A DNA stretch of 64,000 nt, taken from the NCBI GenBank assembly GCA_036172245.1, contig JAYWIR010000008.1, forward strand, positions 5,084,001 through 5,148,000. Reading direction: 5' to 3'. The translations under genes and the position numbers were made by a program. Origin of the DNA: Raillietiella orientalis. Lineage: Eukaryota. The notes below the pieces were generated by a model, which was given only the letters and a program-made list of their open reading frames with translations, searched no databases and had not been told where the DNA came from. Shown here piece after piece: positions 11,440 through 64,000 of the stretch. Every line of letters begins with the position of its first letter. Within the stretch, counting starts at the first letter, position 1.

Positions 11440-12250
11440 TAGTTTTTACTTTTTTCAAGTTCTTTTTTTCTTTTTGGTTGTCAAAAAGTGCTGATGAACC
11501 GTCCACCTTCTTAGAGGGGAGAGTCCCAAAAAACTCTTTAACGTTGCCCACGCCACCAGAGGATGTGTGCCATTCTTCAAAGTTGAGGGGGGGAGGGTTA
11601 TCATCTTATGAATCCAGGAAGAGCTCTAGAGGAAGGAGTTCATTCCTCTCACGCTTGGGAGGGAACCCTCGTCCCGGTTGTCTCCGAAGGGAAAGAAACA
11701 TCTTTCTCATCCTCTCCGGAGGAACCCCTGGTTTGTGGAGACCGCTCCTCATTTCTTCTCCTGAGGGGAACCCGGAAAGAATCCGTCCTGGAATTTCTTC
11801 TCCGGAGGGAACGCACGCAAGAGAACCGCTCCTTGTTTCCTTCTCCTCTGTAGAAGAAGCTGGAGGGACGCTTCCCAATTTATCTGAAGGGCACTCCCCG
11901 AAGGGAACGGCGAGCTTCTGATACCATGGGGAGGTACCAGTCCACCAGCTCCATGGTACGAGATGAAGAATCCTCCCTCTAAGGAAGGAGATGATGGCTC
12001 CATTTTCACAACCTTGATTTCTGGAAGGACCTCCGAGGTTCACTTCCAATCCAGACCAGTCAACCAGGGGTTTCCGCTTCCACCAGTGCCGCACCCGAAG
12101 CCTGTCAATCAACCAGCATCATCCTGTGGGAGGACTCGAAACCCACGACGTACCCGTTTCTCGGCATCAATCCATCCCTGGGTGGGATTCGAACCCTCAA
12201 CATTCGATACCATGCGCAGGGACCGTACACACGGCCCACGTGGCGAGGAC
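11440..12250 (-). mobile_element. tRNA-derived SINE-like element, copy A
   Basis: B box GGTTCGAATCC on minus strand (GGATTCGAACC at 12185-12195), body shared with five other copies, A-rich tail (T-rich on + at ~11440-11475). Confidence 0.8.
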
Positions 12251-12329: not shown

Positions 12330-13750
12330 TAAGTGGTGACCCCCCTCCTCCTCGCTCTCCGATTCCTCACAGACACAGGGTGCAAGCGACGAGCGTTTGT
12401 TCTCTATGTTTCCCCGCATCATATCTTTATTTATCTTAGCCACCAGCCTGTGTCGACGTTCTCCGAATGAGACCCCGAGTCTTACATTGATGTGCGTCCA
12501 TTCCCATCGAATCATCGCTCCGGCGTGACTGGGGGCTTGAAGTAAAGGCGTTCGAGGCGTGGCGTTCCTGTAACTTGCGAGCTGATGCGCACACGTGAGC
12601 TGCCGCTGCCAAGCTGAGGTGACTGAAGGGGGGCCGGATCTCCCAAAACACCTACCCACGACCCAGAGTTTCGCCGTTTTGGACGGATTCCGTTCGCCTG
12701 GAAAGTTTTCCGTGCGACCCCGAAGCACGTTGAGGAAGCTCTCAGGTCTCTGGATCTCCAGCCGGTCCACCCTTCGTTCTCCGGACGAAGATCGGTGCAT
12801 TCCGTGGTTCTGCGAAGAGCGCGCATGCATGTTCGGATCTTCCCTTCCCTGGTTGTGCTTTCTTGCAATCATCGACCAGGTGAACTTGGTATCAGTAGAT
12901 CGGATGGCTGCTCTAGTAAGTCCCGGTTAGAACGCAGGTTGTCCGCAGACAATCTGACACCTCCGCCTTTGCCATATGGGATGCTGAATACGATCGGAAT
13001 GGCGAAAGCGCGCGCGCGTCCCCTGGCGGAGTCGCTCCGCACGGACGTTCTGTGCGCTGCGGTTTTCGCTTGCCGGGACTTGACGGCCGCGAAGCAGGAC
13101 CCGTCCCCACAGAACAGAAGAAACTTCCCAGAGCGTCAGACCTGTCCACCCTACACTGGAGGTGCTCTCGACTAGGACGGATTCTGCCTCAGAGGCGTTC
13201 GGTCGTAACCCGTCGGATGACAGCTTCGCCCCGCCGGCCGGCCGACCAAGAACGTGTGTCAAATGTCCGAACCTGAGGTCCCTCTCGCATCGAGCAGAAC
13301 CTTTCCATCGCAACGACCACTCATCAGTAAAATAAAACGAACCCTCTCACGATGGTCTAATCGCGCGAGGTCTCTGTACTCCTTCGGAGAGAGCCCAAAT
13401 ACCTAATCACAGGAAACACTCTCAGCCCGAAAGCAAGGGACCGGCGGGTGGATGCACGCTCGTGGCCTTCACATCCCAGCCACGAGTGGCTTCCCTGGAA
13501 ACTCAGTTGACACCCTTCGCTAATTAATGCTTTTTCAGTGTCCTTGCCTAATAAGCGGCTCATTCGTGTTGTGGCTCATCAAAGCGCATTCTCTAACTAA
13601 TCTCTCAGGGGTCCTCTCAGCACCCTCCGTGGCTTTTGCTACCTGATGGTGATTCCCGGTGCAGTAAGCAAGATGCCGAGGCAGAAGGCAGTGTGCCACT
13701 CGAGGTTGTTGGTGCCGCACTCCACCGCCCGAGCACAGAATTCCTTCCAG
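12330..13750 (-). mobile_element. Degenerate L1 LINE RT relic
   Basis: Minus strand, in order: LLGKDTEKA (~KLDxEKA), LTHVL (~LTHLxFADD), PFRSY (~PFRYLG), DGNGRT (~GNGxxT of the post-RT region). Confidence 0.45.
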
Positions 13751-28919: not shown

Positions 28920-29335
28920 AGAAGGCTCTTGGATTCTTTCTTACGCGCTTCTCGCACTCTGGAGACGCAACCTCCGAGGAGGGTATCAACCATCTCCATG
29001 ATACGCGCTGGAGGGTTCCCCCCGAAAGGGGAGGTGGGAGGGACGGCTCCATTTTCACAACTGGAGGGGAACCTCGAAGGGAAGCGCCTTGATTCCTGGA
29101 AGGGATCTCGGGAGGTCGACTTGCAATCCCGGCCAGTCAACAAGTCAACAGGGCAGCCGGTTTCCACAGGTGCTGCACCCGAATGGGCCAAGTCAGCGTC
29201 ATCCTGCGGAGGGGGGGGGGGAGCTCCAAACCCACGACGCACCCATTTCTCTGGCGTAGATCGCTCTCTAGCTGGGATTCGAACCCGCAGTGCTCGGTAC
29301 CACGCGCCGTAGGTTGTGATCACACGGCTGACAAC
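28920..29335 (-). mobile_element. tRNA-derived SINE-like element, copy C (lacks the tail-proximal part)
   Basis: GGATTCGAACC at 29275-29285 and a body collinear with copies A, B, E and F down to ~28940. Confidence 0.8.
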
Positions 29336-31899
29336 GTGAGCAGATCTCTCTCTTTCATCCTTGCTGATAGTTACTGCAGGACTGCTGATGTTCTCTTATC
29401 GTCTGATCCAGGAAGAGGCATATCACAGATCCCTAGTTTCCTGGGGGATGTACTCGAAGAAATCTTTCCTGCCGGAGGAGCCTTTGAGAAAATTGAGAAA
29501 CCTTTGAGAAACCACCTAGGATTTCAGATGAGTTAATCACCGTTCTTTCATACTCTTGCTCACCTTGAGGGAAAAAGGAGATTCTTTCGAGCTAGGGTCC
29601 AAAGGATGGGTGGCGTCCTTCTTAGCAAGGATTCGAAGAGTTCGCGGAGAGCTGGACAATGGCACTGGCGGACGAGATGAAACGATTGGACCACCTCCTA
29701 GAGACGATCCCCGCGTTCGATGAGCCGAAAAACTCAAGGTCATGTGCCGATTACTAGGGAAACCCGACTGAACGAACTGGGATCACCGGGAAGATGTTCA
29801 TTCTGAGGAGGGGAAACTGTTCAATTACTATCGGGTTCCCTCACGCAATCGTGATATTCTTCCCGTCTCAGGGCAAAGTCGAATTTCCTTCTCTCGTCCC
29901 ATTCTTCTGGGACTGCGATCTTCCTACGGAAGCGCAAGGCCAGGAAATCATGAGATGAAGCTCCCAGACATGTATCAAGTGCCCTGTTCTAGAGGAGGAA
30001 GGATTCCGAGGAAATTCGGATTCTGCCTCTCTGCTCGATGGATCTTGAGGGGCGTCTGCGTTCCACAAAACAAACGCCGAAGAGAACGATTTCGCCTCCC
30101 CTTCCCTGATCTTCAAGTTTTAAATTTAATTTCCTTTTTTTATTCTTATAGATCCAGGTTTATTTGCATGACAAAGAAACTGGATTGAAAGGAACAATCA
30201 CTGGGAATCAAGAGTCTATTTTTCTGTGGAATTGCCACTCCTTTGAGCCGGGGAGGAAGAGTTCTTTGCGACGCGGAGTTCTTTCACGAAGTTGCCTGTT
30301 TGTAAAGTAAATAAGACGCAAAGTTTGTTAGGGAAGCATCGAACGAGCGCACAGGCGCGCGTCGACATGCCAACCGAAACCGGGAACGGTCAGTCGAACC
30401 GCAACTTCCGGATTGTTCGATTGTTTTTGCGCTTGTTCTCCGTTTTTTTCCTCTCTTCTTTCTTTCTTTCCTGCAGCAGCGCCCATTTTCTTGATTGCCC
30501 GAAGAGAGGACGAATTTCGTCAGCTCATCGGAGAGCGCAGGCAGTGCCACGGGGGTACCACAAGTTCCGCTAGCGGCTCCTCTCTCGGATGCGGTAGTGC
30601 GTGGCGGTGCGCAGGCAGAGCGCATCCACACAAAAGGACCGTGTGTGCCTAAGCATCATTCCGGCTCCTTTCCTTGCAGCTTCCTCGTGTCTTTTTTTTT
30701 TTTTTTGCTGTGTGTGTGTGTGTGCATTTCCGGGAAGTAAGGGGAAAGCGTCTGTTTTTTTTCCGATCCCTCATGTCATCTTCTCCTTGTCAACCCACTG
30801 AGCGAAGGCTTACGGCGCGAGATCCCATGCAATGCGTCTTGGAGACTTCGTCCGAAAGGGACGCTGCATTGGCTTCAGAGGGGTTTTGGGTAGAAATCGG
30901 GGAGAGGATCCTCGCCAATCACACGCAATGTGCCGCCGAAGGTCTGAAAATTCGAAAATTCCAGCCAATTTTTGGCTTCGGTTGTCTCGGAGATTGGGCT
31001 CTCTGAGCCACGAGGATGCCTGCAGCTGTGCTCTTGTGCCTTCCCCCTCACTTAATTGCATCTTTCCCGCGGTCCAGAAACACTTTGGAGCGAGCGTTTT
31101 TGAGGTGAGTTTTTCTCGGAGGACCCACCCCCTCCGCGAGAAACTCACCCGACTTGCCTGTCCTCTGCGAAGCAGCAGCGCCATTCCCCTGGGTTCATCC
31201 TTGTGCTCGAGGGACCCTCCTGCCTGCCTTTCGCTCTCGCTACCCCCTTTCGCAGCTTGGCGATGGCGCCCGTCTCGGTCCAGCCTTCGGAAGTGCGAGA
31301 ACGCCCTTCCGCGGCAAGCTCGTTCCCTCTTATCCCAATGATCCCTGGCAACTCCGTTTCTCCTATCGTTTGCAAGTCCCCTCCCATCATTCTCTCATCA
31401 GCAGTATATTTTCATCCTTCGCTGATCCCCACGTCGTTAAGGCATTGTTGACACCTGCTCTCCCAATCAATTCCTCCACGCTTCAGATGGACCGTTCCTT
31501 GGTCGGGCCGAAAAATTTCGGGGCACAGGAAAGAAGGGCTTTACTTTCACGGGCTGGGTGGCTCCCCCTGAACTCGTGTCCGCAATCCTGCGTGCCGTAA
31601 TCGACATTACCTACGTTTCCGGGAGTGAAAGAACAAGCCTCTCCTGAAAAATCAAAATCCCGTGAGAACCCGATTTCCCCTCCTTGCTCTCCCCACGATC
31701 GCGTTCCCTCCGCCTTGTCCTCGAAGGTTTGGAACGCATTTCGTGAGAGAACGGAAATCCCGAAGCAGCAGCACCACTCCTCGCTTCCTCCATCCTCATC
31801 CCGAAACTTCCAGCGATGTCTTCGACTTACCACTGTTGCTCATTGCTATTCAAACCATTTGCATTCAGCTCGTGTAGCGCAGGCATTAGTGAGGAGGTC

Positions 31900-32400
31900 A
31901 CGTTTTCCTCACTGTTAAGAGTTGCCTTCCTCACGTCCGCCTGCAACAACTCAGAAATTTCTCCAGAAAGCGTCCAGGGAGAAACTGAATTCATTAGCCG
32001 TTTCCGAAAGAATTTCCTGATGAACCAGGAATGGTTCGGGCCGATGCATCAACAAAAAACCAGAGGTCGCAGAGGGGCATATTGAGCCAGAGGTCCAGAT
32101 CAGGGGGAGACCACGTCCTGAGCTGGAGGCATCCCGTGTCAGCTCACCTTCCATTCGATGGTGGTGTCCACCATCGGATGGGCGGACCTGCACGCCGTGG
32201 ATCCATCCATGAGGCACGACTTCACCTGTGCGGAAGGGGGTGCAGTACATCCAGGATTGCTGAAAGACGAGATGAACTCCTTGGCCCTGGTAGCGCCGTT
32301 GCTGGGCGTCCATGGTGTCAGGCAACGTCCGACAGATCAAGGACTCCACCAGGTCCACCAGGAAGCTTTGGGAGCCGGTGGTCGCTCTGAGGATGGACGT
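31900..32400 (-). mobile_element. Possible L1 ORF1 relic
   Basis: LQLRTWSPP (~LxLxxWxP of DUF4283-type ORF1). Weak. Confidence 0.25.
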
Positions 32401-32984
32401 GGGGTGGCAACCCGGTCCAGGAGCACGGGAAGAGAGCGTGCCGAGGACTGGCCCTCAGCTCCGCCCGCAACGGAGTGTCGGCAACTGGAAGAGCGCGCTC
32501 GCCGTAGGATCTCAGGGGTCTTGGGCACCGGGGGGTGGAGGAACGCTGAAGGAGTCGCGGATTCTCAAGAAACCGGAGGGCCGACCGGAGAGAATGGGAT
32601 GCGACACTCACCGGAAGCATAGGGTAAGTTGCCGCAGGCACCCTCAAGAATCCAGCTACTTCGTGAGGAAGAGCTGAAGACACGTGCAGAGAAGATGCTG
32701 GCAAAATGCTCCTCCTTCGCATCTGTCTGTGCCTTCACTTTCTTCTCTCGTTTTGACGTGATGGTAAACGAGAAAATGAGGATGAAGATCGAACTGGTCG
32801 GAGATGAACATCCAAGCTATCTGGTCTTTGTGTGCTGATGCACCGAAATTCGACGCCCAAGAAACAGGCGGGTCGATCGGTGAGAATGGGTGTTCTCCAG
32901 CATTCAGTACACCCCGGGCACGTACTGAAAGCATAGGTTGGACCACCGTACTGAAAGAGCTTTCAAGAATCACAGCCTCGTTGT

Positions 32985-34300
32985 GAAGGATTGAAGAGAT
33001 GGCACAGAAAAGATGGTGGCCTTTACCTGGACAGGGCGAAGCCGGAGGAAGTTACGGAGGAGGTTCCCTCTGGCTATTCCAACGTGCAAAGGGGTCGTAG
33101 GGGCGAGAGAAGAATCGAACCATCTAGCAGCAGGTTCCCGCCCTAGTTTTCCTCAGGATAGCTGGTGCTCGTAGAAACGGAATGGGGAAGGTGAAGCGAA
33201 TGATTGCAGCCCCGGGACCGGAATGACCTCGAACTATCAATAAACACCAAGCGGGTCCAGCATCCTTGAACGCTGAAGCTTAGACTAGGTGAGCGTGTCC
33301 AGTGGGCCAATTTCGGTAAACAGAAGCGACACTGTGGGGTGAACCCAACGCAGGGTTGCAGCTCCCACTCATTAGATACCGTGGAAGGCGTTGGTTGCTA
33401 TGGACAGCAGGACGGTGGCCAAGGAAATGGGAATTCGCTCTACTCCTTGGAGAAAGCACCTGCAGAAACAGCCAGTCCTGGAGACGAATGGCGCACAAGC
33501 GTCGGGTCTCCGTCCAACCAACGAAACAGAGCCGTTCCTGCCTTCTGGCGCACTGACGCAGGAAAACGACAGGTTCATGAGGGTTTCGGAGATTAAAAGG
33601 GTCCACAGTGGGTGCAAAAACTTTGAGCTCCAGCTTGTCAAAAGCGGCCGCCGCTGCCGTCGGTGCGGAGCTTAATGGAAGCAGCAGACACTCCAGTGAG
33701 ATCGTGGATGTCTATTGTGGAGGAGAGCTCCACGCGGACAGCCTCTGAGCATAACTCAGCTTATCGCAAGTCCCTGGAGAAGATGGTGGAAATCGCTCCT
33801 TTTCCCTCGTTGGTTTTGTACCCCCTTCCTGTTTGCGGATGAAAGCAGCAAGAGGTGGGTGGATGCCGAACAAAGGGGAAAAAGAGGAAAAGCAGCAGCT
33901 GCAAATATCGGAGAAGATGAAAACGAATTCTAAAGCTGCAAAAGACGTGCATGCCTGGCGCGCGTGGCAACCTCGTAAATGTCATCGGAAATGGTGGTGC
34001 TCTTGCACGGAACGCCGTCCCGAGCGACACCGCTCTGAGCAGAAGGATTTGTGTGGAACAGGGTCCATCTATGTCTGACATGGGAACTGAGGGAATGCAC
34101 CAGGAGAACACCACGGTTTCTGCTCGCGGCCTAGCCGCCCGTGGAAGAAGAAAGCTGTGGGACAGCCTCTTTCGCGTCCGGGCTAATCATCCGAGCGAGT
34201 GCAGCCAGCACGTAACAACAGGCGATGCGCTAGGAGACTCCGCGATATCCGAAAATTTTAGAAGGCAGGGCCGATATCGTCTTGACGTGGTTCGCTGGCA
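32985..34300 (+). rRNA. Degenerate cytosolic large-subunit (28S-type) rDNA fragment; core 33005-33770
   Basis: Collinear universally conserved LSU blocks: AAAGATGGTG (~33010), AGGGCGAAGCC, ACGTGCAAA, TAGGGGCGA..AATCGAACCATCTAG (33098-33127), CCTCAGGATAGCTGG (33151-33165), AAGCGAATGATT, AGTGGGCCA (33301), GACAGCAGGACGGTGGCCA (33403-33421), CACCTGC, GGTGCGGAGCTT, ACAGCCTCT (34162-34170). Substitutions and deletions in invariant positions indicate a pseudogene. Confidence 0.9.
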
Positions 34301-34439
34301 CGCTTCCCCGAGAATGCAGAGACAAATCCCAATCTTTCCTTGGACGCGGACGGATGGATGTGGGTGCGGATTCAATCCAACCGCCGGCAACCTCTCCTTA
34401 TGGATTTAAGCGGTGCACATGCCTCACCTAGGCGCTTCT

Positions 34440-34760
34440 GCTTTTGCTTCTTGCCCTCCAGCTTTTTTTCCTTTTTGGTTCTCAAAGAGTGCTGAATAAC
34501 AGTTGGCCTCCTCAGGGGCTCACAAAGCTCTCTAGTACCGTATGCACCACCCGAGGGTGCATGCGACTATCCAAATTAGGGGAATTAACTCCGGAGGGAG
34601 GCTTCCAAATTCCCGGAGCCTATAGACCACCCAGCGTTATTCCGCTGGGGAGGAATCGACACCCGCGACGCATCCATTTCTCGGCGTCGATCCTTTCCCG
34701 GTAGGATTCGAACCCGCAGCTCTCGGTGCCGCGCACAGAGACCGCAGCCATGCGGCCATC
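34440..34760 (-). mobile_element. tRNA-derived SINE-like element, copy D (internally deleted)
   Basis: GGATTCGAACC at 34704-34714 with A-box-like TGGCCGCATGG upstream on the minus strand. Tail block TTTTTGGTTCTCAAAGAGTGCTGA matches copies A and F; the middle of the body is missing. Confidence 0.75.
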
Positions 34761-35149
34761 AACTTAGGTTTTTTGAATCTGCACTCGAGATGGCAACCTT
34801 CCCTCTCCCCATCCTTGTATGCGCCCATGAAAATAAAGCACTTGATGAACCTGCGAGATGAGCTCAGAGCGCGCGACAAGAGCATGTCGAGGAAGGTCTC
34901 AGACGGGTGTGTTCCTCGAGTAGGTGGCTGCGAATTCATTCACAGTGCCTTCAGAGATCGAAATTCACCTCTTTCAATTCTTTAGGTGAATTCCGAAGCC
35001 ACTGACCCCTTCTAAGAACGCTTAAGAAGAGCACAAGCGTCTCAGAGTCCCAACGAATCGAGAGGAAAGGGAAGGATATTCCTGTTGTTTCAGCGTCTAT
35101 CCTCACTGAATGCAAACGCAGATCTCTGGCGAGCTCTGGTGAGCTCCAG

Positions 35150-36050
35150 TGCTGAAGACTGATGATCTCGTTCTCTGGTGATCTCGCCCTTTCCTCTCTT
35201 TACATAAGTCATAGGCCAAGCCCTTATCTTGGCACGGCTTCCTGGAAGGTAGCAAGAGGTAGAGGAGAAGTAGGAACCCATGCAAGACGGCCAGCTGGGA
35301 ACGTTCTGGATCACTCCTCCAGTTGATGCCGAGGCCATCTTCCTGCAATTTCACGGGGCATTTTGCTTGCACTTTCTTGGATTTTTCCGTGCCTCTTCCT
35401 TTCCTCGAGACCCCTTACAGCAGATGAGCAGCGCTCTCAATTCAAAGACAGGACAGTACCTGTTGAACTCGTCCCTTAATCTGAATGAATATAGTTTTCT
35501 CCTTTCTGTTCCTCTAGTCCTCCAGCAGCAGGTGACCTCGTGCCGCAGGCAGCTCCGCAGCTGCACCTCAACTCAGAGTATGAGTACGGAGCAAATAAGA
35601 ACGAAAGGTAGGGGAAGACGAGAATTGCTGCGACTGCCCTGGGGCACAGCTTGTGACTCCGTAGACCAGACACTCGTGCGTTCGCACTCTCTCCGCCTCA
35701 CCTCGGTGTTTCCAGTAGAGTGGAACCACGAGGTGCTGCTGTTTCTGCGCTGGGGATTCCAGTGCAATCGGCGCCTGAACCTCGCCTCCGGGGGAGCTGC
35801 ATCCCTGGACTGTGCCAGGTGCGAGTCGGGGGAGTCGATCCTGCACCTGCTATTGGACTGTAGTGCCCTCCGCAAACTGTAACGAAGGCTGATTTCGGCG
35901 TTCCTGCACCCGGAGGACTCCCCGTCCGTGACCTGCTGCGGTAGTTCTTCGTGCGGCGGACTCTCTGCTGGTGCAGCGAAGGAGGACCACCTACATGAGC
36001 ACGGCTGCAAAGTGGCCCTACCTAGAAGAAGAAGGTATAGTGAAGATCCA
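35150..36050 (+). mobile_element. Degenerate L1 LINE ORF2 C-terminus (zf-RVT)
   Basis: FLRWGFQCNRRL...DCARCESGESILHLLLDCSALRKL (ORF 35280..35882) is a CxxC...ExxxHLLxxC finger. Confidence 0.75.
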
Positions 36051-36649
36051 TGATACCCAGTGCCGGTTCTAAAGAGAAGAAAAAGCCGAGACCGAGAACC
36101 CCTGTCCCCGCCCTCCCCTTATTTGTTTACTTTTTGCCCCTTTCCACACGTTCCGGGATTTTCCCGGTTTTTCCTTTCCTAGAAGGAACGGAACGAACCA
36201 AAGACACGTGTTCCCATCCCCTCCTCATTTTGTTATTCGTCTATTGTCCCCTCCCTTTCGTTCCCTACTTTCAGATGTCCCGACTCGCGTGCCGATGCGT
36301 CCTCCCCTTGAACTCGTTTTGCCTTCGGCATGTTCCCAACTGGTTTCTTTTTATTAAATACCCCCTGCCGCGACCGATCGACACATTCTTCCGCCTCGAT
36401 AGAATCCGGCACGCATCTTGCGGGTGCGATGGCGCATTCTGCGCTCACCGTTCAGCTGGAGTTCAAAGCGCGTTTCGAAAATCTCTTCCAGGGGAGACTC
36501 CTCATCCCACCCCACGGTAAGGGAGTGACTCCGAGGCATCTTTGGCTCAAGTGGATGTGGCGTCTGCCACTCTCGGAAGAATAGGGCTGAAGGGAAGAAC
36601 ATCTCACCTCCTCAGGACTGACCTAATAGGGAGGAAAGGACCTCCCTCG

Positions 36650-38700
36650 CGGCTGTGGTCGCGGAAACCGCTGCAACCTGTCGCAGTGGCTTGAGAGCAC
36701 TGCACACCTGCAGGCAGAGAACGAAAGCATGACCATGCTCCTTCGCTCTGAGACGGAGAGATCCCCTTGCGTCCAACCCCGCTGCTCGTGGATGCGGACA
36801 TCGCTTGCGAGCTCATCACCGGTAGGGCAGCCCGGAATTTCAACAGAGCCGCCGCTGACCATGGCGGATGTCAGGTCGAGGAAAACGAAAGTCCTTTTCA
36901 TGTTCCTGGGGTCCGTCCATGTCTCCACAGCCTCCTCTTTACCTTTCCGCGTGGGGCATCGGGTTTTCTGGAGAGCAGGCAAATGCTTGAGCTCTCATCA
37001 GCCGTCCCAGATTTCCCACGTGGGGGCATGGACATCCTGAGAACTTAGGTGTGGCTAGGATTCCTGGAATGATGTTGAGATTGGGATGATTTTTTGTTGA
37101 TGAGGACGGTGGCAGGATGCTGTGGGCCTCGCTTGCTCGAGGCTATGGTAGCATCTACGCCAGCTTCCATAAATCGGCAGTCCCTGAGGCTTTATCCGGT
37201 TTAATGAACTCGGCGTGTCGGTTGAAGTTACAGGTTGCATCGGTGTGCTAAGAGTGGTCATTTGCGACTGCTAAGGTGAAGTAAAGCTGGCGCGAAGAGG
37301 ATAATAGCGGATTCTGGTTGACAGAGTTGAGCAGCATGAAGCCTGTGGGATTGATTCCGAGTGGAAAATCGGGGTATTCCACGACGTTCTCGTGATCTTC
37401 AAAACATCAGGAAGAGGAGGCTATGAAGGATCCTGAATGTCATCGACATTCGGGACCTCGGAAGAGGTCTTTGGCAGGTCTCCGCGATTCGTCTTGGCCC
37501 TCAGCATGAATGGATACTACGCCCTTTTCCTTTGCCTTACTTGGCGTCTCGCTTGCTTGCTCCGCGGAAGGATAAGAAACTGGGACTCCTTATGCTGGAG
37601 CGGATGGAGCGTCAGCTCCAGATTCGAAAACTCGCCCTCGCGGCGAGGCTATGGACAATGCCTTGGTGCACACCAGCACGCCTCCTCGCCAAGAGAGCTA
37701 CGGGCTGAGAGGAACTGCCTTCGGTCCTCGTGGACAACCCTGCCAGTTTGAGGCATTGTGGACTTCAAATCGGACAAATGTTTGCCTTGGTGAAGGAAAA
37801 CACCTAGATTTCTTGCTTCCCAGCAAACTGCACTGCTTGGCTTCAGGGGTCAGTTACCTTATGGGGGAAGGATCCACGGCTCGAGCAAGGCGAAGTGCGC
37901 TTGCGTGCAGGGATGCAGATTCTCTCGAAAGCCGCTGCAGGAGATCGTGTGCAACCCACGATATCTGCTGTGGGTTGCTATCTTCATCCCCTTTGCCCCA
38001 GTACTGCTCCTCTTGAAGGACGCAGAGGACAACGACCTTCCGGCAAGGTAGGAGGAGGTGTCCTGCTGCATCGAAGGCCGGAAGAAACTTCTTTGCGCAT
38101 CGACAACTCGTCAGCTCACGGACGCTGAGGCCCCGAGTGTCCCTCTAAAAGGATTTTTACTCTGGAGTGAGCTGCTCGCAATGCCTCCAGAGGGGATGAC
38201 TTGTCCTCCAGGTTGCTGAAACAGTAGCACCCTTCCCCTCGAGTGACACGAGTCGGAGTTGCTGGTGTTGCATAGGGGAATCCCATGCAAAGCACGCCTC
38301 CATGATTGAACACGTAGGAGTGTGAATGCTGGATGTGATGAGTGCGGCGAGAAAGAAACCTTCCCACACCTTCTGCTGGACTGTGCCACCCTCCATCCAC
38401 TTTGAAATCGCTTCTCGGGGTCCCTAGGAATCCCGGTTGTCGGCCTTAGGGACATTTGCAGACGCCTCTTCGCGCGTGCCGCACTGCCGCCAGCCGCGTC
38501 CCTCGCAGTGCGCTGTCTTCGCGAGATCGTGGCGGCGTGGAAGGTTGGGAGAAGAGCCCGAAATGGAAAGGATGCCATCCACTGGGCGCGATCTTCTTGA
38601 AGATCTCGAGATGATCCCACCTGGGAGAGATCCGGACAGAACTTTTCAGCATCCTGGACAGGATGCTCAGGACGTCTCCCAGAGAAGTGTGATGCCATCT
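36650..38700 (+). mobile_element. Degenerate L1 LINE RT relic
   Basis: In order: LRPTPLL (~FRPISL), ENESPFHVPGVR (~NQSAFVPGR), VFHDVLVIF (~FADDxLIF, ~37375), FPLPYL (~LPFxYLG, ~37530), MLERMERQL (~LEKIxKRL). Confidence 0.6.
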
Positions 38701-41700
38701 CCGGTCCCATTCCCCTCCCCGGTCAGAGTTTTCCTCCCGCTTTTCGTTTTTTTTTTTCTTTTTGTCTGTTTTTCCCGCTTTTTCCTTCCCCGTTGCTGTT
38801 ATAACGGACCTCATCGGTCTACGTACCGGTCGTGGAAAGTTCCGAACAGGTGGTGCAATCAAGCGTTTCACCACACTTGAACATCTCAGTGGACATCTTT
38901 TATTACTGTCATTATAAATATTTTGTTCAATAATTAATTCTTCGGAAAAACCAGGTGGAAAACTTGACGTCTTGCGTTTCCAAGAAGCCTTTGTCCCGTT
39001 TTGTTTCCCCGGCCCCGTTCCCGGAAGAGCAGACTGCCAAGCAGGGTCCCGAGGAAGAGTTCCTTTTCATTCCCTCTCGTGCATATTCTAGATGCACCCA
39101 ACACGAAGAACGCGCTCCTTTTCTGAAAGGAAGGACCAGAGTTCAGGGGTACGACGTTCCCTTCCTGATCTTCCTGTTCCTCCTCGCTTGCCACCCCGCC
39201 CAGCTTTCCTAGCACTCGCCGTAGGTGTAAGGAAGAAAAAGCAAGAAGGAGTCTCTAGTTCTCACGAAGAAGGAACCGGGTTCACGATTTCCGTAAGGTC
39301 TTCTCGGACGAGTGACTCCTCCCCTTGTCGGTTCCAGGTCTTCCGAAAAGCAGGGCGGCGCCGCTTCCTCTGCCGCGAAAGTTCCCATCTTGCTGCATGG
39401 GGAAGCCCAGGAATTCGATCTGTCTCGTGCTGGCTGTCCTGGATATTCCAGGAACTTGCAGTTCTTCCCAAACGACGGCGGAGGCGGGAAGGAACGGGTC
39501 CACTTTACGGGGACTGGCATGCTGCTTGCCGGCCACCTAACGGCTTCGGTCAAAGGACCTCAAAGACTCCAGAAGGCTGGAAAGGGTTCCCTCGAGGGGG
39601 CTTCCGTGGCAGCATTGCATAGACCTCTTCCCGTGGCATGGGAATGTTTGCTGCAAAGGGATCACAAGACGCTTCTTCGACATGCGAAGAGCAGCGCAGA
39701 GCGCCCTCCCGTGCCGAGTTTGCGACCAGACAAGCGGGTCCACGAGTTCAGCCACGGTACCTGTTGACGCGCGTCGGTGACCTCGCCAGTTCCTGTCGTC
39801 TTTGGACGGAAAGGAAGGGGATAAGGATGGGAATTTCTGGAGAAGAAGAGGGAGGAAGAATGGATGGGTCCTTCGCCGGAGGCCCTTCCAGGAGATGGTT
39901 CCCGAAATTCTCCCAGATGTCCACGTGTGGGAGGCGTGATGCGAGGATCCTCCACGCGCAGCTTCTGCGGAGACCATTGTTCCCGGCTCCTCCTCCACCC
40001 CTCTCTCCGCTTGGATTTCACACTCCGGGAGGACCCGTCTCTTGGACCGTTCCGGGACGGAAGAAGGAACGCAGAGAAGGAGGGTCAGACGAAGAGGAAC
40101 GCAGAGGGGGGGAGGATTCATTACATCCCGGAGATCGCATCTCGTCTCCGGGATCGGGAATCCTTTGTGTGGAGGAGGATTCCAGGCTGCGTGGCCGTGC
40201 GCCCCTGTCCCGTTTTGTTTCCCTGGTCCCCACGGGAAATTCCCCTATTTTCCATTTTTATTGAAAAAGAAAGGTCAGGAGGCGTTCGGAGCCTCCCTGC
40301 CTTCCCCCTCCCCCACTCCTTCCTCCTAGGACTGCTGCTTCCGCGGAGTCGCAAGCCGTGTCAGTAGCATTCGGAAGCCTGGAGCAAGTGAGTGAGCGCG
40401 TCCAACTAGGAAGAGGTCGAAGGCGACGAGAGAGCTGGTGGGGAAGCGTGCAGAGGGAGAAAAAGGCACCCTTCTTCTCCTTCTCCTCTCCTCTTTGCCT
40501 CACTCTTTTCCTCCCTCCCGGACCCCACCACTCGTAACTCAGGATGCCTCTCCTTCCACTTTGCTCCTCATCCCCAGATTCCTCCCATGTAAATGCCTGG
40601 AGGTAAGAGGTTTCTTCCCTACATCAGGAGACATGGCGAATCTTCCTCCGGGACACGCTCCCTCCCCAGGGACTGACCACACGCTGCTGCCCCCTTCACA
40701 CCCTCCGCCGCCACTGCCGCGACGGGACGCAATGCCGTGACTGGGAGTCAGAGCAAGTGAGACTTCTGTCGGAGGCGAGGGATCCTCGCCCCCAGGCTAC
40801 GCGGACTTGAGGGACTGCTCCCATCCCCCTCCCCTTCGGGAGTTTGAGACACCCTGATTCTACCCACCTCACTTTTCGAGCTCCATTCTCCGAACCTCAC
40901 CCGGTTCCCCTTCGAGCGTCCGGGAGGCTGACTCCCCAGAAAGGAAAGAACCAGCAGTGGTCGCCGATGCCACGAAGTCGTGTCTTGGGGGGCACCCAGG
41001 GTCGAGGAGCGAAGGCGATCTCGCAACAGCCGCCTGGCGGGGAAGGCCGCCTTAGGCGTTCCGGTAGAGCGAGCCCTTTCCGCCCTGCGTTGGGTGCGGA
41101 GGACAAAAGCAAGAAGAGGCGCTGCTGCGCGCTCTCCAGATCGCTCCCCTCCCCTCCCTTCCCCCTTTTCTTGTGCCTGAGGTGGCGGAGATAATAAAAA
41201 AAGGGGGGATGGCGTGAAGAACAAGGCACTTCTCGTGACCTTCAGTAGAGTCGCCGCCTCCAGAGGGAGCGGGCGAAAGCCATCAGCGTTCCTGTCCATC
41301 CTTCACCCCAGCCGATCCATGGCTGCCTTCACTCGACTCGACTGCCTTCCGGTGGCTCCGTCTATCGATCGGCACGTGGCGACCCCCAGGATGCGTTAGT
41401 CTGCACAAGGGATGCCAGCCGGCCATCTTGCCGCGTGGACCAGCAGCGAGAGAAAAGGGAACGGGAGGGGGGGCAGGAGTTAAGGGAGTGACTAACCTCT
41501 GCCCCCCTCTTTTTTTTCTTCAGCATCCAAGAAAACAGGAAGGGGGAATGGCCATGCAGGGAGGGAGCCTAAAGAGGACCCGGTAATCGAGCATGGTCTG
41601 GACCTGGGCCTGAACTCCAGTAGGCATGGCTGGAGATGGAGTGTGTGTCTGAGGAGAGGGCGTAGGAGGATGGGGTTTTCGAAAAGAAAAGTTTGGGGAG

Positions 41701-44400: not shown

Positions 44401-44760
44401 GAAGCACGCTGCTACTTTTGCAACACACCCTGGGAACGGGGTCTATAAGTAAGCCAAGAGGGAAAAAAAAATTTTTCTTTATTTTTTTACAAAAAATTCT
44501 TGCATGCTTATATGCAGGAAGAACAGGAACAAGGTTGAGCAAGAAAAACACGACCAGGAATGGGCAAGAACACAAACAAGAATGAGAAAAGAGAACAGGT
44601 TTGTCTTTCGAAACATTCAAGTGGCTTCTCACCATCGAAAGGAATTAAAGATGCAATTGGAGAAGTGAATGTAGACTCGGCTCGGGTCCCGCATCGGGTC
44701 CAGGAAGACCCTCGAACCACGTGCGATCATAGAGGAGGAAAACCGTTCTCCATGAAAGTA

Positions 44761-45806
44761 GCACACCTGCAAGGTAGGATATCACCTGCTTCATCGAGGG
44801 AAGATCGAAACCCCTTGCTGGGTGGAGCACGCGAGGGCTAGCCGACCCAGCGACTCTCGGCATCCCACTCCCAGTGGGCGAACTGCCTCCGCCAGGTCCA
44901 GCTGCTGGAGAGTCCCCCAGAGAAGGCGCTGCTGCACGCCATTCTGACAGGCGCATTCACCCTTCCTTCCTCTGACGTGTGGCAAGAATCGGCGCTTCTG
45001 CTGAAGCGCCAGGGTCCTCCCTGCGGCACGCGCCGACACTACCGGACTCGGGAGCGGGTGAGCCCGAACTGCCGCAGGTGCGGGGAACGACAGCCCCTCC
45101 GGCACGCGTTCTCGCGGGTCGTGCCGCCCTCCGGCCCCATATAGGAACGCCGGTGGGCAGCCTCGGAGACGTTCGCAAGCGCCTCTTCGTGCGCAACGTC
45201 CTACCGCCAGCCGCGTGCCCAGCAGCCGCCTTTCTGGCATTGTGGCTGCCCGCAGCGCCGCAACCGAAAGAGGCCCGGACTTTTGCAGGTCGTCATCTCT
45301 TCCATCTCTTCTTCAGGATGACCACCCGTCTGGGTAGTAATGATGGATGCAGCATGGAAGCATCCTTGGAAGGACGTTCGCTGGCAAAACGTGGTCCCTT
45401 CCCAAACCATCCAAAGTTTTCCCGTCGATTTTTATTGATTTTTTTTTCCTCTCGTGCATTGCCGGGGCAAACCTCATCGGCGTCTCGGCAGATTCCCTGC
45501 TCAGTGGGTGTGTCAGGGCCGAGTGCTGTTGCCCACCTCCTTCTCTGTACGTCCACCGAGATCCAGCGAATGCCCCGGCGCAACTGGGTGGCAACGCCCG
45601 GAATCCTCGATCGGAAACTTCCCGCCAGAGGTCGTTCGTCTTCCGGGAAGGGCTTCTCCAGAGGGCAAAGGCATCCATCCGGTAGTTGGTGGGGCGAGCA
45701 CCAAACCCTTTTCTAGAAAAGATCTCTCTTCTCTCTCCCCCCTCCTTCCGAGTGGAGAAGCCTCCACGGGCACCGTTAGGGGTTACCCCATTCAGAAGAG
45801 AAGGCA
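44761..45806 (-). repeat. Large inverted repeat, right copy (near-identical to 5904-6924)
   Basis: Reverse-complement match to the left copy, with an extra 27 bp at 45674-45700. Confidence 0.97.
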
Positions 45807-45970
45807 GCTGCTGCCGTCAACCGCGCTGTGTACGCCACCAGCTCCATCGGAGATCGTGCACGCACCGGAGGCACCAGTGGGACGTCTGGAGCGTGCTACC
45901 ATGGTAAGGTCTACCTTACACTGTGTGCTTGAGGTCAGGAGTGGGTAGGAAGGTATCTGAGGTCTTCGCG

Positions 45971-48999: not shown

Positions 49000-49990
49000 T
49001 CGAAGGATGCCGGCGAGCTCCTCCTTCTCTCTTTCCAGGTAGGGCCACCTTAAAGCTATGAAGCTGTTGGTGTGCAGGACAGCCCCCTCGTCGCTCCATG
49101 CGTGATGCGGCCTCTCGTGATGCGAGACCGTGCACGCAGCACAGCGCTGCGATTGCGGCTGCGGGAGTCATGGCCTCGAGCTCGGAAAAGGACCTCAAAG
49201 AGTCTCTGGGATCGTCTACGGGGTGTGAGAGGGACGCAGAGAAACGTTCCACAATTCCCGGAGGGCGATGCACTGCACTATGAGGCGGGGAAGTGTCTCC
49301 TTCTGTCCACACCTGCCACAATCCGGCGTTGCGCTTCCCCTTGTCCAGTGGTGCCGGCTTTCATTGCACGGGAGACCCCAGTGCAGTATCAGCAGCGCCG
49401 ATTGCTGCCACTTGAGGGAAGCAGCTTCCTGCCCATAAATACGGGGGGCACTTCCAACTTTTCGGGATGAATGGAGAAGAGTTCGCCCCAATGTTCCAGT
49501 CCTTTGGAGACGGTTCTTGCTGTTGCTGCGTCAGCCAGCTGACGCAGAGTCCAGCCACCGATAGACTGCCTGTAAGTCGAGATCTCTCAGGAATCCTCCC
49601 ACGTCTCCGGTAGCTTCCACGCCACCCGATAGCAGTGGACACCTCTGCGGCGAAGGGAGTGGCTAGCGGGTAGGCCAACATAATCAGCTCACTACCCACC
49701 GCATCTAGTGTTCTTCCGCTGTTTTGAAATTCTCGGCAGCGGGTGACTTTTGGCGGGTTCCAGGTGAGCTGGGCCCACGTCCTCACTTTCTCCTGCCTCC
49801 AGGATGGAGCATTTGCAGGGCGGCAGCAAATCCACGTGTTCGCTCTCACCAGAGCAGTGACACACCGGAGAGGGAAGCCGCAAGATGGGAGCCAGCCGTG
49901 ATACACGCAAACAGGGTTGAGAATCCTTCCCCACCGGCCGCCGGCCGGGAGAGCAGACGTGCAGGGGCGCACCTATAGGTGGTCCAGTTC
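49000..49990 (-). mobile_element. Degenerate L1 LINE ORF2 C-terminus (zf-RVT)
   Basis: LLILHWGLP...DCGRCGQKETLPRLIVQCIALRELW (ORF 49216..49491). Confidence 0.75.
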
Positions 49991-50049
49991 TGTGCCACAA
50001 AGGCCAGTTTTCGAAACTTCAATTGAACTTCGATGCGCTCCAACATCAG

Positions 50050-50420
50050 GAGTCCAAGTCCTCCGTCGCGACGGAACCGCGTTCCCTACTTGTTTGTTCA
50101 TTTTCCTTCCCGAATAAGCGTCCCGGATTGACTGGATCAAAAAAAAAATCTCAGGTTCCCCTTCTTCGTCTCTTTCCCTTCCTCAACCCACTTTGGCTTT
50201 GGCAAGCGTCAAGCATTGACGTCCATCGATGCGCTGCATTTACCCTCGAAAATTTAGCACGCTTGATGGACACGGGGGATGCAGATTCCTTGACCCACGA
50301 CAAAATCTCTCTTTCCAATCCCAAAACTCCGAACCTGCAGCAAGAGAACCATGTATGGCACTCCAAAAGGCCGGTATCACTCTACCTTCCTTTTCTTCTT
50401 GCCGCACTCCTCCCTAGCAC
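50050..50420 (+). mobile_element. Possible Ty1/copia RT relic
   Basis: WQASSIDVHRCAAFTLENL (~WxxxQLDVKxAFLxGxL) then ENHVWHSKRPVSLY (~ENxVCxLxKSLYGL). Confidence 0.45.
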
Positions 50421-51379
50421 CACGATTTGAAAAGCCAGCTCGAGCCTTGGACTTCCCGCCGCCGCCTTGGAAACGAGAAAGGGGGACTTGATAGGCCACA
50501 TCACATTCTTACATCGAAGCTGTCCCCACCTTCCTTCCTCTGAGCCTGCCTTCCCCATTCGAGGCGTCCAGGGCTGATCCGACGCCCTCTGCAGCTCCTC
50601 TCTGTTGGCCTCCATTTGGTCTCCCGTCCTTCCCCCTCGCTCTGTGGGAATCCTCTGCAGGGAATCCTCTCATCCGAGCTCCATTTGCTTCGCTCTCCAG
50701 CTTCGCTCAGATTGCGGGATGGCACTTTTTCCATTATCACCCCTAAACTCCTTTGTTTCTCCCCGCCGACGACCCCACTCCTCGCTTCGGGCAGCGCATC
50801 CCGGTAGCGGGAGGAAGGCAGGTAGCAGGGCGTTTCTTCCTCGCTTCCGTGGTGGGACGTCCCTTCGATCCTGGTCTCGTGGACGCGGTATTACGAAGGG
50901 CTTTCCCCGGCGTTTCGTTCCCAGGATCCCGGAAAGTCTGTTCTGACCAGAGGACGACTCTGAAGAGCGGAATCTTTTCCTGCGTCCCGGACTCCCTCCC
51001 TGGTTTCGCTTAATTAGGATCGAAAAGTCGAAACAGCAGCGGACTGATGACGCTCTTGGAGACAAGAAGTCAGCGCAGTATTGGATGTAACCGATGGAAG
51101 CATCTCTCCCTCCACTCCTGCATCCCGGTTTAATTAGAACGTAGAAAAGAATTCCGGTTTGGATTTCGATTTGCTTCTTCATCGGGATTTTACCCCGTCC
51201 TTCCCGCAGCGGCCCAAGGAGTTTCGAAAGGAGTTCTTTCTGTCTTGGGGCCCTGTGATGGCACAGGGCGCTTATGAAACACATCAGGGATGCACGCTCA
51301 GCTGCCTTTTGTGGTGACAGGAGAATCACCCTGATGGAAGTGAAAGGGAACCGGAAGGAGTGTATCCAAGCCACCTCCA

Positions 51380-52050
51380 GCTCCCTAGCCGCAGGGTGTC
51401 TTCACTGCGGGAAAGCAGCAATGGTTGCCAATCGGCAGTGTGGGTGACCTCGTAGCAGGAGCGACAGGGCTGGTGGGCCGGTGGGTGACGGGCCAGAGGG
51501 TTAATGCAGCGACACCTGCTGCCCGTGCTAAAGGAGCGCTTCGCTTTGGGCAAGATACCTGGGTGTTCCGCCATAGGAGACTGCGCCTCCCCCCCTCCAT
51601 CTGGACAGTTCTCTGCTCCCCGTCAGGTGGCAGAATGAAAAGGCTTCGGTGCTCGCGCGCTGGGGCTTCCCCTGCAGCCAGTGGAGACGTCACTAGACGA
51701 GGGGGATCCGCGTCAGATGCGAGCAACCAGACATTTCCGCGCACCTACTATTAAAATGCAGTGATGTTCGAAGCACGCGGAAACCCCTCGGGGCTGCCCA
51801 ACCACGATCCGAAGACACCACTCTAGAGCTTCTTCTGCTCCAAGCAGCACGGGGCCTTTGTCTCCTGCTTCCTCGATCTCTCCGTTCTGTATTACGTCAG
51901 GAGGATCATGGAGTTTTGCAATACTGAGACGCACCAGCAAGGAAGAAGGACCACTCGATTGCTGAGTGACGAGGAACATGGCGAAGAGGTCTCTGAAGAA
52001 TGCCAGAATGGAGTAGGACGGAGACCTTCTGCATGGCACGCAGGCTCAGA
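51380..52050 (+). mobile_element. Possible L1 ORF2 extreme C-terminal relic
   Basis: The peptide loosely resembles the post-zinc-finger segments at ~6930-7100 and ~28370-28600, and is followed by the same TGAC/pyrimidine tract. Confidence 0.25.
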
Positions 52051-52899
52051 AGACGCGGAGAATATGACAGGTGACTCCCGTCCCTTCCTCTCCTGTTATT
52101 TATTTATTTATTCTCGTCTCCCCTACACCCTCCCTGCTCTTCTGTGCAGCCAGCCTACGGATCGGCGGTTTTCTTTCCTTTTTTTTTCTCCTCCCCCTGA
52201 ATTTTTTTGTGGACCGATGCATTTCCGATCTGTTTGTTTTTCTCTGTTTGGTACGGGAACGCCTCGGAGCAACGGGAAGAAAACGGTGATGGGCGAGTTT
52301 TCCCCAGACCAGTGGTTCCCTCCCCATCCTTCCCTCCCCTTCTCAGGGCAGCAGGTCAACTCTTGGACCCTTCCACGGCGAATGTCCTTCCTCTCCTTCC
52401 ACGATCGCATCTATTCAAAGTCACTCTGTGATTCCGTCTCCGCAGAAGCAACTTCCGCTGCTTCAAAGGGTTTCGAGTCGTTTTCTTGCTCCTCCCTTTG
52501 CCGTTTCTTCCCTCCGCCTTACCACCTCTCTGAGTCCAGAGAGAAATTCCTTCGCACTCAAGACTGCCTCAGGCCGTTATACTTCATCTGCAGATTTGAA
52601 CATTCCCACCCGCTTCCGAGTAAGCTCTGGAGTTCCTCGTTGACTTCCTGAATCCCGGTCCTGCTTCTTCGCGGGGGACGGTTCGCTCGCTTTCCCGAGA
52701 ACCGAAAGAGAAGCGTTCGGGAGAAGGAAAGCCAAAAGGAACGGGAAGCCGGACCCACGACCCTGTCGATACGCTTGCGACCGGATCTCTTGAAGCGGGA
52801 AACGACCCTCGTTTTGCGCGCGGACCTCTTCGGCAGCTGTCACAAGAAGCTTCACCCCCCCCCCCTTCCTTCCCTGTGTTAGAGCAACTGCTTTCGTCG

Positions 52900-55424: not shown

Positions 55425-56185
55425 CTCACAGACCCCTCTGGCTGCGGTCTCCGCGTGTAACGCCAGGCATCACGGGTTCGAATACTTGGAAAGAATCGAC
55501 GCCAGAGAAATGGGTGAGTCGTGGGTTCGACATAGTCCTGCACGATGACGCTGGTCGGCCTCATTCGGGTCCGGCTCCTGTAGCGTTAAAACCGGATTCC
55601 CCCGATAAGTGCCGGGATTGGGTGTCGACCCTTCGAGGTTGTTCTGCAAAACAGAATCAAAGAGTCTGTTTCTCTTTGGAGTTCTCTTCCGACCAAAGGA
55701 GCAGAGGAAAGTACGATGTAGCTGGTGGATTGATGATGCTTCTCCAGAGTGCAAAAAAGCGAGACTCACCCTTCGGGGAGCACCCTTCTGAGAAATTTCA
55801 GAAGTGCCCCTTTGGAGTTCTCTTCAGAAGAGTAAACAGGCGTGGTTTCCTTACGGGCTCCCTCTGAAGAAGAAATTCCTATTAGCGGATCCTCTCCGGA
55901 GAAGAAAATTGGGGTGGACCCTTCCGGGGATCCTTTCGGAAAGGATAAGGAAGGGGATTTCCTTCGGGGATCCCTCCTCACGCGTGAGAGGAACGGACTC
56001 CCTTCTCCAAAGCCGTTCCTGGATTCACAGGTTGGTCCCCACCTGGGGTACCTCCTTTCCTCAAGATAGAATGACACGCACTCTCGAGTAAGGTGGAGCA
56101 GTGTGAAAGAGTGTGAAAGCTGCGTGAGTCTCCAGGCAAGCAATGGTTCTTGAGGTACTTGGCGAACCGAAAAAAAGAAAATGTG
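55425..56185 (+). mobile_element. tRNA-derived SINE-like element, copy E (opposite orientation)
   Basis: TGGCTGCGGTCTCCGCG head, GGTTCGAATAC at 55475-55485, shared body, and an ending of GGCGAACCGAAAAAAAGAAAA. Confidence 0.8.
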
Positions 56186-58900: not shown

Positions 58901-59859
58901 GCATAATCCATGTCCGCATTAGAGTGACTTTGGATGTTTGTACAGGTGAAGAGTTCTGGTCATGGATGGGAGATCACTAGCTCCAGACAAAATCCCGTGC
59001 CCGCAACAAGAGGAGAAAACGAGGAAAAGTTAATCCACGGCAGTAGCCCTGCAAGAGAAAGCATCCGTGCACACCCCCGATGGGTCCGCTTGCATGGCTG
59101 CCGATCGCTGCATACGGACGACATCGCGCATTGAGGAATGGCTGGATCGTGAAACTCACCACTCGCCGTTCACCACATCCGTCACTTTTCCTGTAAGGTG
59201 TTTTTCCAGCAGCGATGCTAGCTGCACGTGGGTGAACCTGCTCCTGCTTCGACCCTTGACCTTACCATCGAGGCGTTTACTAAGCGGATGAAAGAATCGC
59301 CCTCTTTCATGCAGGACAGAGGAGCCCCAGGGAACAAGTCGTGTGTGCACTTCCGCATTGGATACCTATTGGTTGCTGAGCCTCAGATAGCAGCTGCAAT
59401 GAAGGAAGGAAGCAATTTTCCACAACAAGAAGGAACTGCTTTTGCTTTAGTTACAGGGAAAGAGATACCAAAAAGCTGGAAGCGCCATCCCTAGCCTGGT
59501 TTACCTTGGAATTCCAAGGCGCCTGCGGTCAGCGGCCGGAGGAACCCCAGGTCGCCTCTGTGGACTAATTCGTTTTCCGTTCCTTCCGATGGGGCGAAGC
59601 CGGAGGGACCTGCTTTAGTTACAGGAGTAAAGGGAATCTCAATGTGCAAACCAGACGTCGCATCAGTAAACCAGCCAATGGAAAGACGCAAAGCGGCAAA
59701 CTTTTTTTTTCATTCCGAAAAACTACTTCAAGTGCTGGAACGCTGTTTCAGCTTACTAACTACACTAGTGTAGTAGCTCCTCTTAAAGAATTCAGCTTAT
59801 AATTATTTCAGCACGCAGGGGGGGAAAATTCATTTTTCTCCTGTTTTCGCTGCTTTCTT

Positions 59860-60440
59860 TCCAGCCTTTTTTTCCCTTTTTGGTTGCCAAGGAGTGCTGA
59901 AGAACCGTTGCTTCACGAAGTTCTTTGATGCCATCTACGCCATCCGAGAGTGGGTGTAACTCCTCAAGTAAGGGGGGCAACCCCGAAGGGACCACCCTAT
60001 GAACCCGCAATGGAACCACTCCTTGTCTCCTCTTTTGTAGAGAACTCCGAAGGGAAGCATCCCAAAATCTCTGAAGGGTGCGCCTCCGGAAGGCAGTAGC
60101 GCGCTTCTTAGCACTCTGGAGAGGCAACCCCCCGAAAGGGTATCAACCAGCTTTATGGCACGCGGTGGGGGGAGATCCCCGAAGAGAACCGGCTCCTTGA
60201 TTCCCGGAAGGATCCCCCCGGAAGGCCAACTTCCAAATCACAGCCACTCAACGGGGCATCCGGGGGTTTCTGGCCTTCACCAGTGCCGCTCTCGAAGCCA
60301 ACAGGACAACCAGCGTCATTTTGCGGGGGGCACTCCAAACCCACGACACACCCGTTTCGGCTTGCCCGGGCGGGATTCGAACCCGCAACGCTCGCTGATA
60401 CGCGCGCGGAGACCGCAGCCACCCGGCAGCCAAGGTGGGT
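59860..60440 (-). mobile_element. tRNA-derived SINE-like element, copy F
   Basis: GGATTCGAACC at 60373-60383, A-box-like TGGCTGCCGGGTGG, shared body and tail block TTTTTGGTTGCCAAGGAGTGCTGAAGAACCGT. Confidence 0.8.
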
Positions 60441-63600: not shown

Positions 63601-64000
63601 ATCCGACCCTCTTCTCGTGTGTGAGGGAGGAAAGACAGTTTCCTTCTGAAGCCAGGGGTGGGTTCTTCGCGAACGCCCATCACCGGGAAGTTCTATTTCT
63701 CATGGCAGCACCGCTTCCCTGAGGCCTTCGCGCTGGAGTGGGAGGCCACGGATGAAAGAGAGGTCCATTAGCGTGGGCACCCCCGCTCCTGCAGAGGGAT
63801 CTTCTTCGTCCCACCGAGGATCGGTGCACGGACTGGCCGGCGCAATTTCCTGGAATCTGCGCCGTTGTCCTCCTGGAGTTTCGTCGTGGAGGGGAGTCGG
63901 CTAGAGAAGGTGCGTCGTTCCCTGCAGAAATGCTCGATTCATTGCTCCTGTGGAGGGAAAGTGCAGTGAGGGCGAGTTCCTTCTCTGGAGGATGCTGAGT

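Follow-up and report, generated by a model that had tools for sequence, protein, structure and literature searches.

Two decayed fragments of LSU ribosomal DNA in a 64 kb window, probably remnants of the host's own rDNA

Two decayed pieces of nuclear LSU rDNA, denoted here as relic 1 and relic 2, lie in the 64 kb window (the whole stretch of DNA that was analysed). They are ordinary and very old rDNA pseudogene fragments. We infer that they quite probably stem from the host's own rDNA, and the host would accordingly be an arthropod-like animal whose genome is rich in GC; because the source would then be the host itself, no horizontal transfer is needed to account for them. The two pieces are located as follows.

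32897..33803, plus strand: relic 1, decayed nuclear LSU (28S-type) rDNA fragment (Rfam model positions ~675 to 1560)
13172..13360, minus strand: relic 2, decayed LSU fragment near the sarcin-ricin loop (model positions ~2990-3170; 0.19 kb)

A first-pass annotation, made from the letters alone, had read this region as fossil LSU rDNA and had proposed searches with Rfam LSU_rRNA_eukarya and nhmmer, both of which bear the reading out. Rfam cmscan of the 64 kb window matches 32897-33657 (+) to RF02543 (model 675-1445 of 3401; 162.4 bits, E = 7.8e-40). In an nhmmer search, the profile of 57 real eukaryotic LSU loci (L002-L058) matches 33009-33803 (257.7 bits, E = 3.5e-79) and nothing else convincing in the window. 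The core of relic 1, from cmscan and nhmmer together, is 33009-33803 (+), and the fragment measures ~0.8-0.9 kb in all. Its 5′ limit is perhaps 32897 rather than 33009, the segment 32897-33008 being recognized by the covariance model only and at lower posterior probability. The LSU profile, run apart on 31501-33010 and 33790-35500, yielded no match at E <= 100, and 33830-34300 is without support as rDNA. Thus, of the ~1.2 kb of collinear LSU blocks described initially, the LSU homology stands and the length does not, as the homology stops short of 34300.

Relic 1 is a non-functional, dead LSU copy, because it has lost universally conserved positions, carries gaps in conserved helices and has a low score per nucleotide. 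Its identity to real LSU sequences is 55-68% over ~740 alignable columns, and it is changed at 22.6% (56/248) of the columns that are invariant in 26 distinct real eukaryotic LSUs (31 transitions and 25 transversions). A 13-nt deletion and further gaps fall within conserved helices. Many base pairs of the LSU relics are non-canonical, and the helices are partly kept. Relic 1 scores 0.21 bits per nt, compared with ~0.5-0.86 for real LSU loci covering the same part of the gene.

The base composition of relic 1 has drifted toward the local make-up. Its GC content is 0.548 against 0.543 for the window, and its TA observed/expected ratio of 0.55-0.58 lies between the 0.42 of the window and the 0.73-0.90 that 10 functional LSUs show when the same columns are compared. 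Since the GC content is close to that of the window, the TA ratio is shifted toward it and the flanking repeats are similarly old (65-80% pairwise identity), the fragment has resided here for a long time. Recent contamination is excluded as its origin, because it is both decayed and compositionally drifted; the argument made at the outset, that heavy decay speaks against simple contamination, is confirmed by the loss of invariant columns and by this drift.

Relic 2 represents another segment of the gene and lies on the opposite strand, 20 kb from relic 1. Its RF02543 match covers 13177-13300 (-) (model 3022-3145; 58.9 bits, E = 2.8e-11), and blastn against two real LSU 3′ regions (L059, L060) gives 70-71% identity over 139-192 nt. 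Both relics exceed the RF02543 gathering threshold of 50 bits (162.4 and 58.9 bits). The sarcin-ricin loop motif in relic 2 is mutated. No SSU, 5.8S or further LSU parts were detected by cmscan in the whole window at E <= 1, where the only matches beyond the two LSU pieces are two weak and unrelated ones. Each relic is therefore an rDNA fragment outside its unit, without adjoining SSU, 5.8S or the rest of the LSU, which is what defines an orphon.

Both pieces are dead nuclear LSU rDNA fragments (rRNA pseudogenes, or 'orphons') without a present function. In the favored account they left the rDNA array long ago and then decayed neutrally inside gene-free, repeat-derived DNA. Dispersal may have occurred by DNA-level break-up or transposition of rDNA units, or by reverse transcription of rRNA by a non-LTR enzyme.

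Compared with the functional LSU (RF02543), the relics retain collinear homology and partly kept helices over model positions 675-1560 and 3022-3145. They differ in covering only ~30% of the model, in their mutated conserved motifs and in the lack of a nearby 5.8S or SSU. This partial coverage, together with the 56/248 altered invariant columns and the altered sarcin-ricin loop motif, sets them apart from a working gene. To the extent described in the available text of PMC5555474, they resemble the rRNA pseudogenes of filamentous ascomycetes, which are non-functional partial copies outside the array that have escaped concerted evolution and carry substitutions and indels. Measured against the pseudogenes in that part of the paper, the relics are far more decayed (22.6% at invariant sites) and comprise only two short pieces from different parts of the 28S, and we infer rather than observe their escape from a host array.

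To place relic 1 among eukaryotes, we searched a collection of prokaryote genomes for a 26-nt LSU motif drawn from the Rfam consensus line and so obtained 57 reference contigs of eukaryotic LSU (L002-L058), all of them contaminants of bacterial assemblies. When 20 kb of the window was compared with five contaminant-bearing genomes, the only match was at the LSU relic. Relic 1 was aligned with every reference covering the region (31/57 loci), and 746 columns were kept. Two references (L002, L034) were dropped as assembly chimeras of two LSU types; these contaminants in bacterial assemblies switch between plant-like and arthropod-like LSU within 1-2 kb. Removal of the duplicates L045, L003 and L055 as well left a 27-row tree. 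Identical arthropod-like LSU also occurs in several unrelated bacterial assemblies (L033, L045, L037).

A metagenome scan with the first of four motifs quoted in the first-pass annotation (motif 1, CCTGGACAGGGCGAAGCC) returned 119 loci, mostly LSU-like but non-eukaryotic; 14 were taken as eukaryotic LSU (13 scoring > 430 bits and one short locus at 267 bits). Six of the 14 had enough coverage for the tree. The first 81 nt of an IMG/VR 'viral' contig (L001, 1-81) are eukaryotic LSU (model 874-954, 82 bits), and the contig continues as non-rDNA; it may be chimeric, or it may hold an element that inserted into rDNA. The 18-nt motif CCTGGNCAGGGCGAAGCC occurs mostly in metagenome loci (L066-L184) that match the eukaryotic LSU profile weakly (70-380 bits), many of them on long contigs, and these weakly matching loci are probably archaeal LSU genes.

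Among the references, we take L011 and L030 to be insect-like, L028, L036 and L049 to be plant-like, and L005 and L021 to be fungus-like. The arthropod-like, plant-like and fungus-like labels come from likeness to well-known sequences, backed only by primer matches, and they are a lead, not a test. Exact sites for two published invertebrate 28S primers, rD5a and the reverse complement of rD5b/28SBout, are present in L033, L037 and L045, and each of the two sites matches only a minority of the 71 references. Both primers are listed in PMC2854684, and papers that use the rD5b sequence include studies of spiders, scorpions, a centipede, a springtail, earwigs, a flea, a bivalve and a leech.

In the 27-row ML tree (GTR+F+G4), relic 1 groups with L017, L033 and L037 (97/86), and with these three plus L011 and L030 (100/99). 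When the six environmental rows were added (33-row tree), relic 1 still adjoins L017, L033 and L037, and the smallest well-supported set that contains it consists of L017, L033, L037, L011, L030 and M144 (98/94). AU tests reject a grouping of relic 1 with five plant-like rows (p = 0.0038) and with five fungus-like rows (p = 0.0097). A grouping with L053 is borderline (p = 0.05), and one with M144 is not rejected (p = 0.19). The exact position of relic 1 is unsure because its branch is very long (1.16-1.24 changes per site; 1.16 in the 27-row tree). It attaches by short-branched rows (L033, 0.005; L037, 0.019) and not by the long rows L043, L026, L013 and L039, which argues against simple long-branch attraction.

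Individual sites and the length of an expansion segment give the same affinity. At 24 sites diagnostic for L033/L037/L017, relic 1 agrees with this group at 14 and with the majority at 6, and it has neither state at the other 4. It carries few of the states diagnostic for other groups (plant-like, 3/22; fungus-like, 1/6; L053, 3/19; L024+L025, 3/27). The variable stretch between the anchors GGATGGCGC and GAGTAGG is 94 nt long in relic 1 and 77-105 nt in the five arthropod-like rows; every one of the 10 plant- and fungus-like rows has 48 nt there. Relic 1 thus has the enlarged expansion segment that marks arthropod-type (invertebrate) 28S. The initial reading of an animal- or arthropod-like rather than plant affinity is therefore supported by the ML trees, the AU tests, 14/24 diagnostic sites and the expansion-segment length. 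A safe statement is that relic 1 looks invertebrate-animal-like and closest to the arthropod-like references, whose labels come from likeness to well-known sequences and from primer sites.

The four motifs on which that initial reading drew are all present where they had been reported, and they differ in value. Motif 1 (CCTGGACAGGGCGAAGCC) is not diagnostic for animals as had been proposed: it is identical in nine environmental eukaryotic LSUs (M144, M105, M113, M142, M118, M087, M183, M075, M150), which had been fetched by that very motif, and the arthropod-like rows differ from it. Four of the five placeable carriers (M105, M113, M142, M118) fall outside the animal-like rows. In the helix GAAGCC.. 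/ ..GGAGG adjoining it, relic 1 keeps the general eukaryotic C-G, and the arthropod-like rows have T-A. Because motif 1 and this helix differ from those rows, the source of relic 1 may lie outside the sampled arthropod-like sequences.

The other three motifs agree with the affinity of the trees. Motif 2 (CTGTGGG..) is matched at 17/19 bases in L037, L033, L011, L053, L039 and M144 and at 13-15 bases in plant- and fungus-like rows. Motif 3 is the strongest of the four, with 23/25 bases matched in L037, 22 in L033 and L017, and <= 19 in every row outside this group. For motif 4, the TCCA/TGGA pairing is kept in relic 1, as in L033.

That relic 1 is instead the own rDNA of a non-animal host, its arthropod-like placement being an artefact of a very long branch, a small unlabelled reference set and labels assigned by likeness, we consider improbable. 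Such an artefact would be favored by the end branch of 1.16-1.24, by references that are contaminant and metagenome contigs without eukaryote names, by the occurrence of motif 1 in scattered environmental lineages and by the possible absence of apicomplexans or dinoflagellates from the reference set. It is opposed by the attachment of relic 1 through short branches, unlike long-branch attraction, by the agreement of three independent kinds of character (substitutions, a compensated stem and expansion-segment length), and by the AU tests that reject the plant-like and fungus-like groupings.

The annotation had further described flanking L1 and gypsy relics with plant-type motifs. We translated all stop-to-stop ORFs of >= 70 aa (597) and scanned 594 against Pfam; the other three lie at 63428-63995. 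None of the 594 scanned ORFs matched an RT, endonuclease, integrase, protease, gag or chromodomain family, and these transposable-element (TE) domains are likewise absent from the read-through frames (stops as X) of 31801-38902 (+) and 49001-52602 (-). The plant-type relics are therefore not reproduced in either set; all that emerges is sub-threshold zf-RVT. The sole TE protein signal comes from the zinc knuckles of non-LTR relics, where zf-RVT is below the Pfam cut-off (E = 0.0017 and 0.0047). These relics, and the SINE-like repeat nearest to relic 1, are located as follows.

35696..35950, plus strand: non-LTR copy A, 3′ tail (C-x2-C-x7-H-x4-C knuckle at 35811-35861; zf-RVT E = 0.0047, below cut-off)
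37567..38464, plus strand: non-LTR copy B (knuckle at 38334-38384 by motif scan; without a Pfam domain)
49219..50100 (upper bound approximate), minus strand: non-LTR copy C (CCHC-type knuckle in ORF 49219-49530; zf-RVT E = 0.0017, below cut-off)
34435..34756, plus strand: REP-A copy, SINE-like (self-blast and repeat finder), between relic 1 and copy A

Copies B and C share ~300 residue-equivalents (best segment 59% identity over 49 aa, E = 2.7e-11), and the homology of copy A to both is confined to its last ~85 residue-equivalents. Copy A is separate from relic 1, being 1.9 kb away from it in the downstream direction. Because the nearest ESM-Atlas clusters of the copy-A ORF, which carry zf-RVT, are recorded from Rotifera and Mucoromycota, the zf-RVT knuckle, judged by these records, is not plant-specific. 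Protein searches with the two best TE ORFs returned no match, and a second ESM-Atlas query returned no usable match. A phmmer search of 1.84 billion representatives gave a single match, to a 7223-aa protein in 25 stretches, which was taken as low complexity.

REP-A is present in six dispersed copies with 65-80% pairwise identity, five on the plus strand (11609-12225, 22226-22686, 28944-29309, 34435-34756, 59838-60427) and one on the minus strand (55474-56027). Its core has two B-box-like motifs, and the tRNA-type B-box motifs lie on the minus strand, which suggests that REP-A is an old tRNA-derived SINE. We also considered whether relics 1 and 2 belong to one composite repeat with REP-A; this was ruled out, as orientation and spacing differ.

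As to how relic 1 arose, a free retro-insertion of an rRNA fragment and DNA-level rDNA fragmentation are both possible. Non-LTR reverse transcription of 28S rRNA, which fits either kind of host and would have left relic 1 as a free retro-pseudogene or a 28S/LINE template-switch chimera, seems rather unlikely as the route. Chimeras of 28S and LINE-1 are documented in primates, where PMC13174262 lists 18 loci with fragments of 50-482 nt, 83% of them in the orientation of the LINE. Like these, relic 1 comprises an internal rRNA part only and is oriented as nearby non-LTR relics, which lie downstream on the same strand; an A/G-rich stretch (~33868-33950) also follows it. Unlike them, it has no LINE junction. 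Copy A starts at ~35696, 1.9 kb past the end of relic 1, and in the intervening DNA there is neither an RT nor any similarity to what lies upstream in copies B and C.

Neither a target-site duplication nor a clear poly(A) tail was found for relic 1, and it thus lacks the features that define a 28S/LINE chimera (direct same-strand fusion to a truncated LINE 5′ end, target-site duplication and poly(A)). At ~0.8 kb the fragment also exceeds every one in the catalogue of PMC13174262, and relic 2 has no adjoining non-LTR relic. Relic 1 and copy A as a single 28S/LINE chimera were rejected on the 1.9 kb gap without LINE-body homology.

The weakest of the alternatives is the one originally favored, an ancient horizontal transfer in which a non-animal host, for instance an arthropod parasite, symbiont or pathogen, took up nuclear rDNA from an arthropod or another animal, and this rDNA has since decayed. 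It is very improbable. The arthropod-like affinity of relic 1 is real, the GC of 0.54 and TA ratio of 0.42 are unlike most arthropod genomes, and decay and compositional drift exclude recent contamination, all of which a transfer would accommodate. Against it, nothing in the window points to a non-animal host, GC-rich arthropod genomes exist, and relic 2, from another gene part, on the other strand and 20 kb off, better fits a genome shedding its own rDNA than two captures. The prior for eukaryote-to-eukaryote rDNA transfer is also very low. The transfer step is unsupported because it leans on a plant-like host, for which the window has no evidence once the plant-type TEs are not reproduced. 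The alternative named alongside it, an animal host and a mistaken assignment of the TEs, is more economical.

If the relics are the host's own, as is most likely, they are ordinary genomic debris. They then serve as a caution: where weak TE motifs are the basis for guessing the host, old rDNA in decay may pass for foreign DNA, and contamination screens that rely on rDNA can be led astray by such relics. Were the host truly non-animal, they would be evidence that arthropod DNA entered another lineage long ago, a rare documented instance of ribosomal DNA moving from one eukaryote to another.

Over its 64 kb the window has a GC content of 0.54, a TA observed/expected ratio of 0.42 and a CpG ratio of 0.87, values unusual for most arthropods. 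This composition is compatible with an arthropod host and does not exclude one, because GC-rich arthropod genomes exist among barnacles; a barnacle identity is not claimed. The GC content of barnacle assemblies is 46.1 to 52.3%, and one such assembly is 2.44 Gb in size (PMC12767199, Table 3); barnacle coding GC is given as ~64% (bioRxiv 10.64898/2026.04.27.721231).

The entire 64 kb appears non-coding. The window has no detectable coding exons, no 3-base periodicity anywhere and no credible Pfam domain; nor does it contain a tRNA, another informative RNA or telomere-type repeats. A Sof1 match at 17566-17808 is spurious, a lysine run translated from poly(A), and matches to LLCFC1, Thioredoxin_2 and DUF6206 were dismissed, all being below cut-off.

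Two features of the window are of more recent appearance. In a 47% GC patch at 17583-17961, two intact poly(A) runs of 15-16 nt and an (AC)16 microsatellite look like younger insertions. An inverted duplication of ~1 kb (5899-6928 and 44757-45811) has arms 37.8 kb apart that are 100% identical over 767 nt and 97-98% identical elsewhere, and it is far younger than all other features of the window. Possible explanations are a segmental inverted duplication, an assembly artefact, or a very large element of which these arms are the ends.
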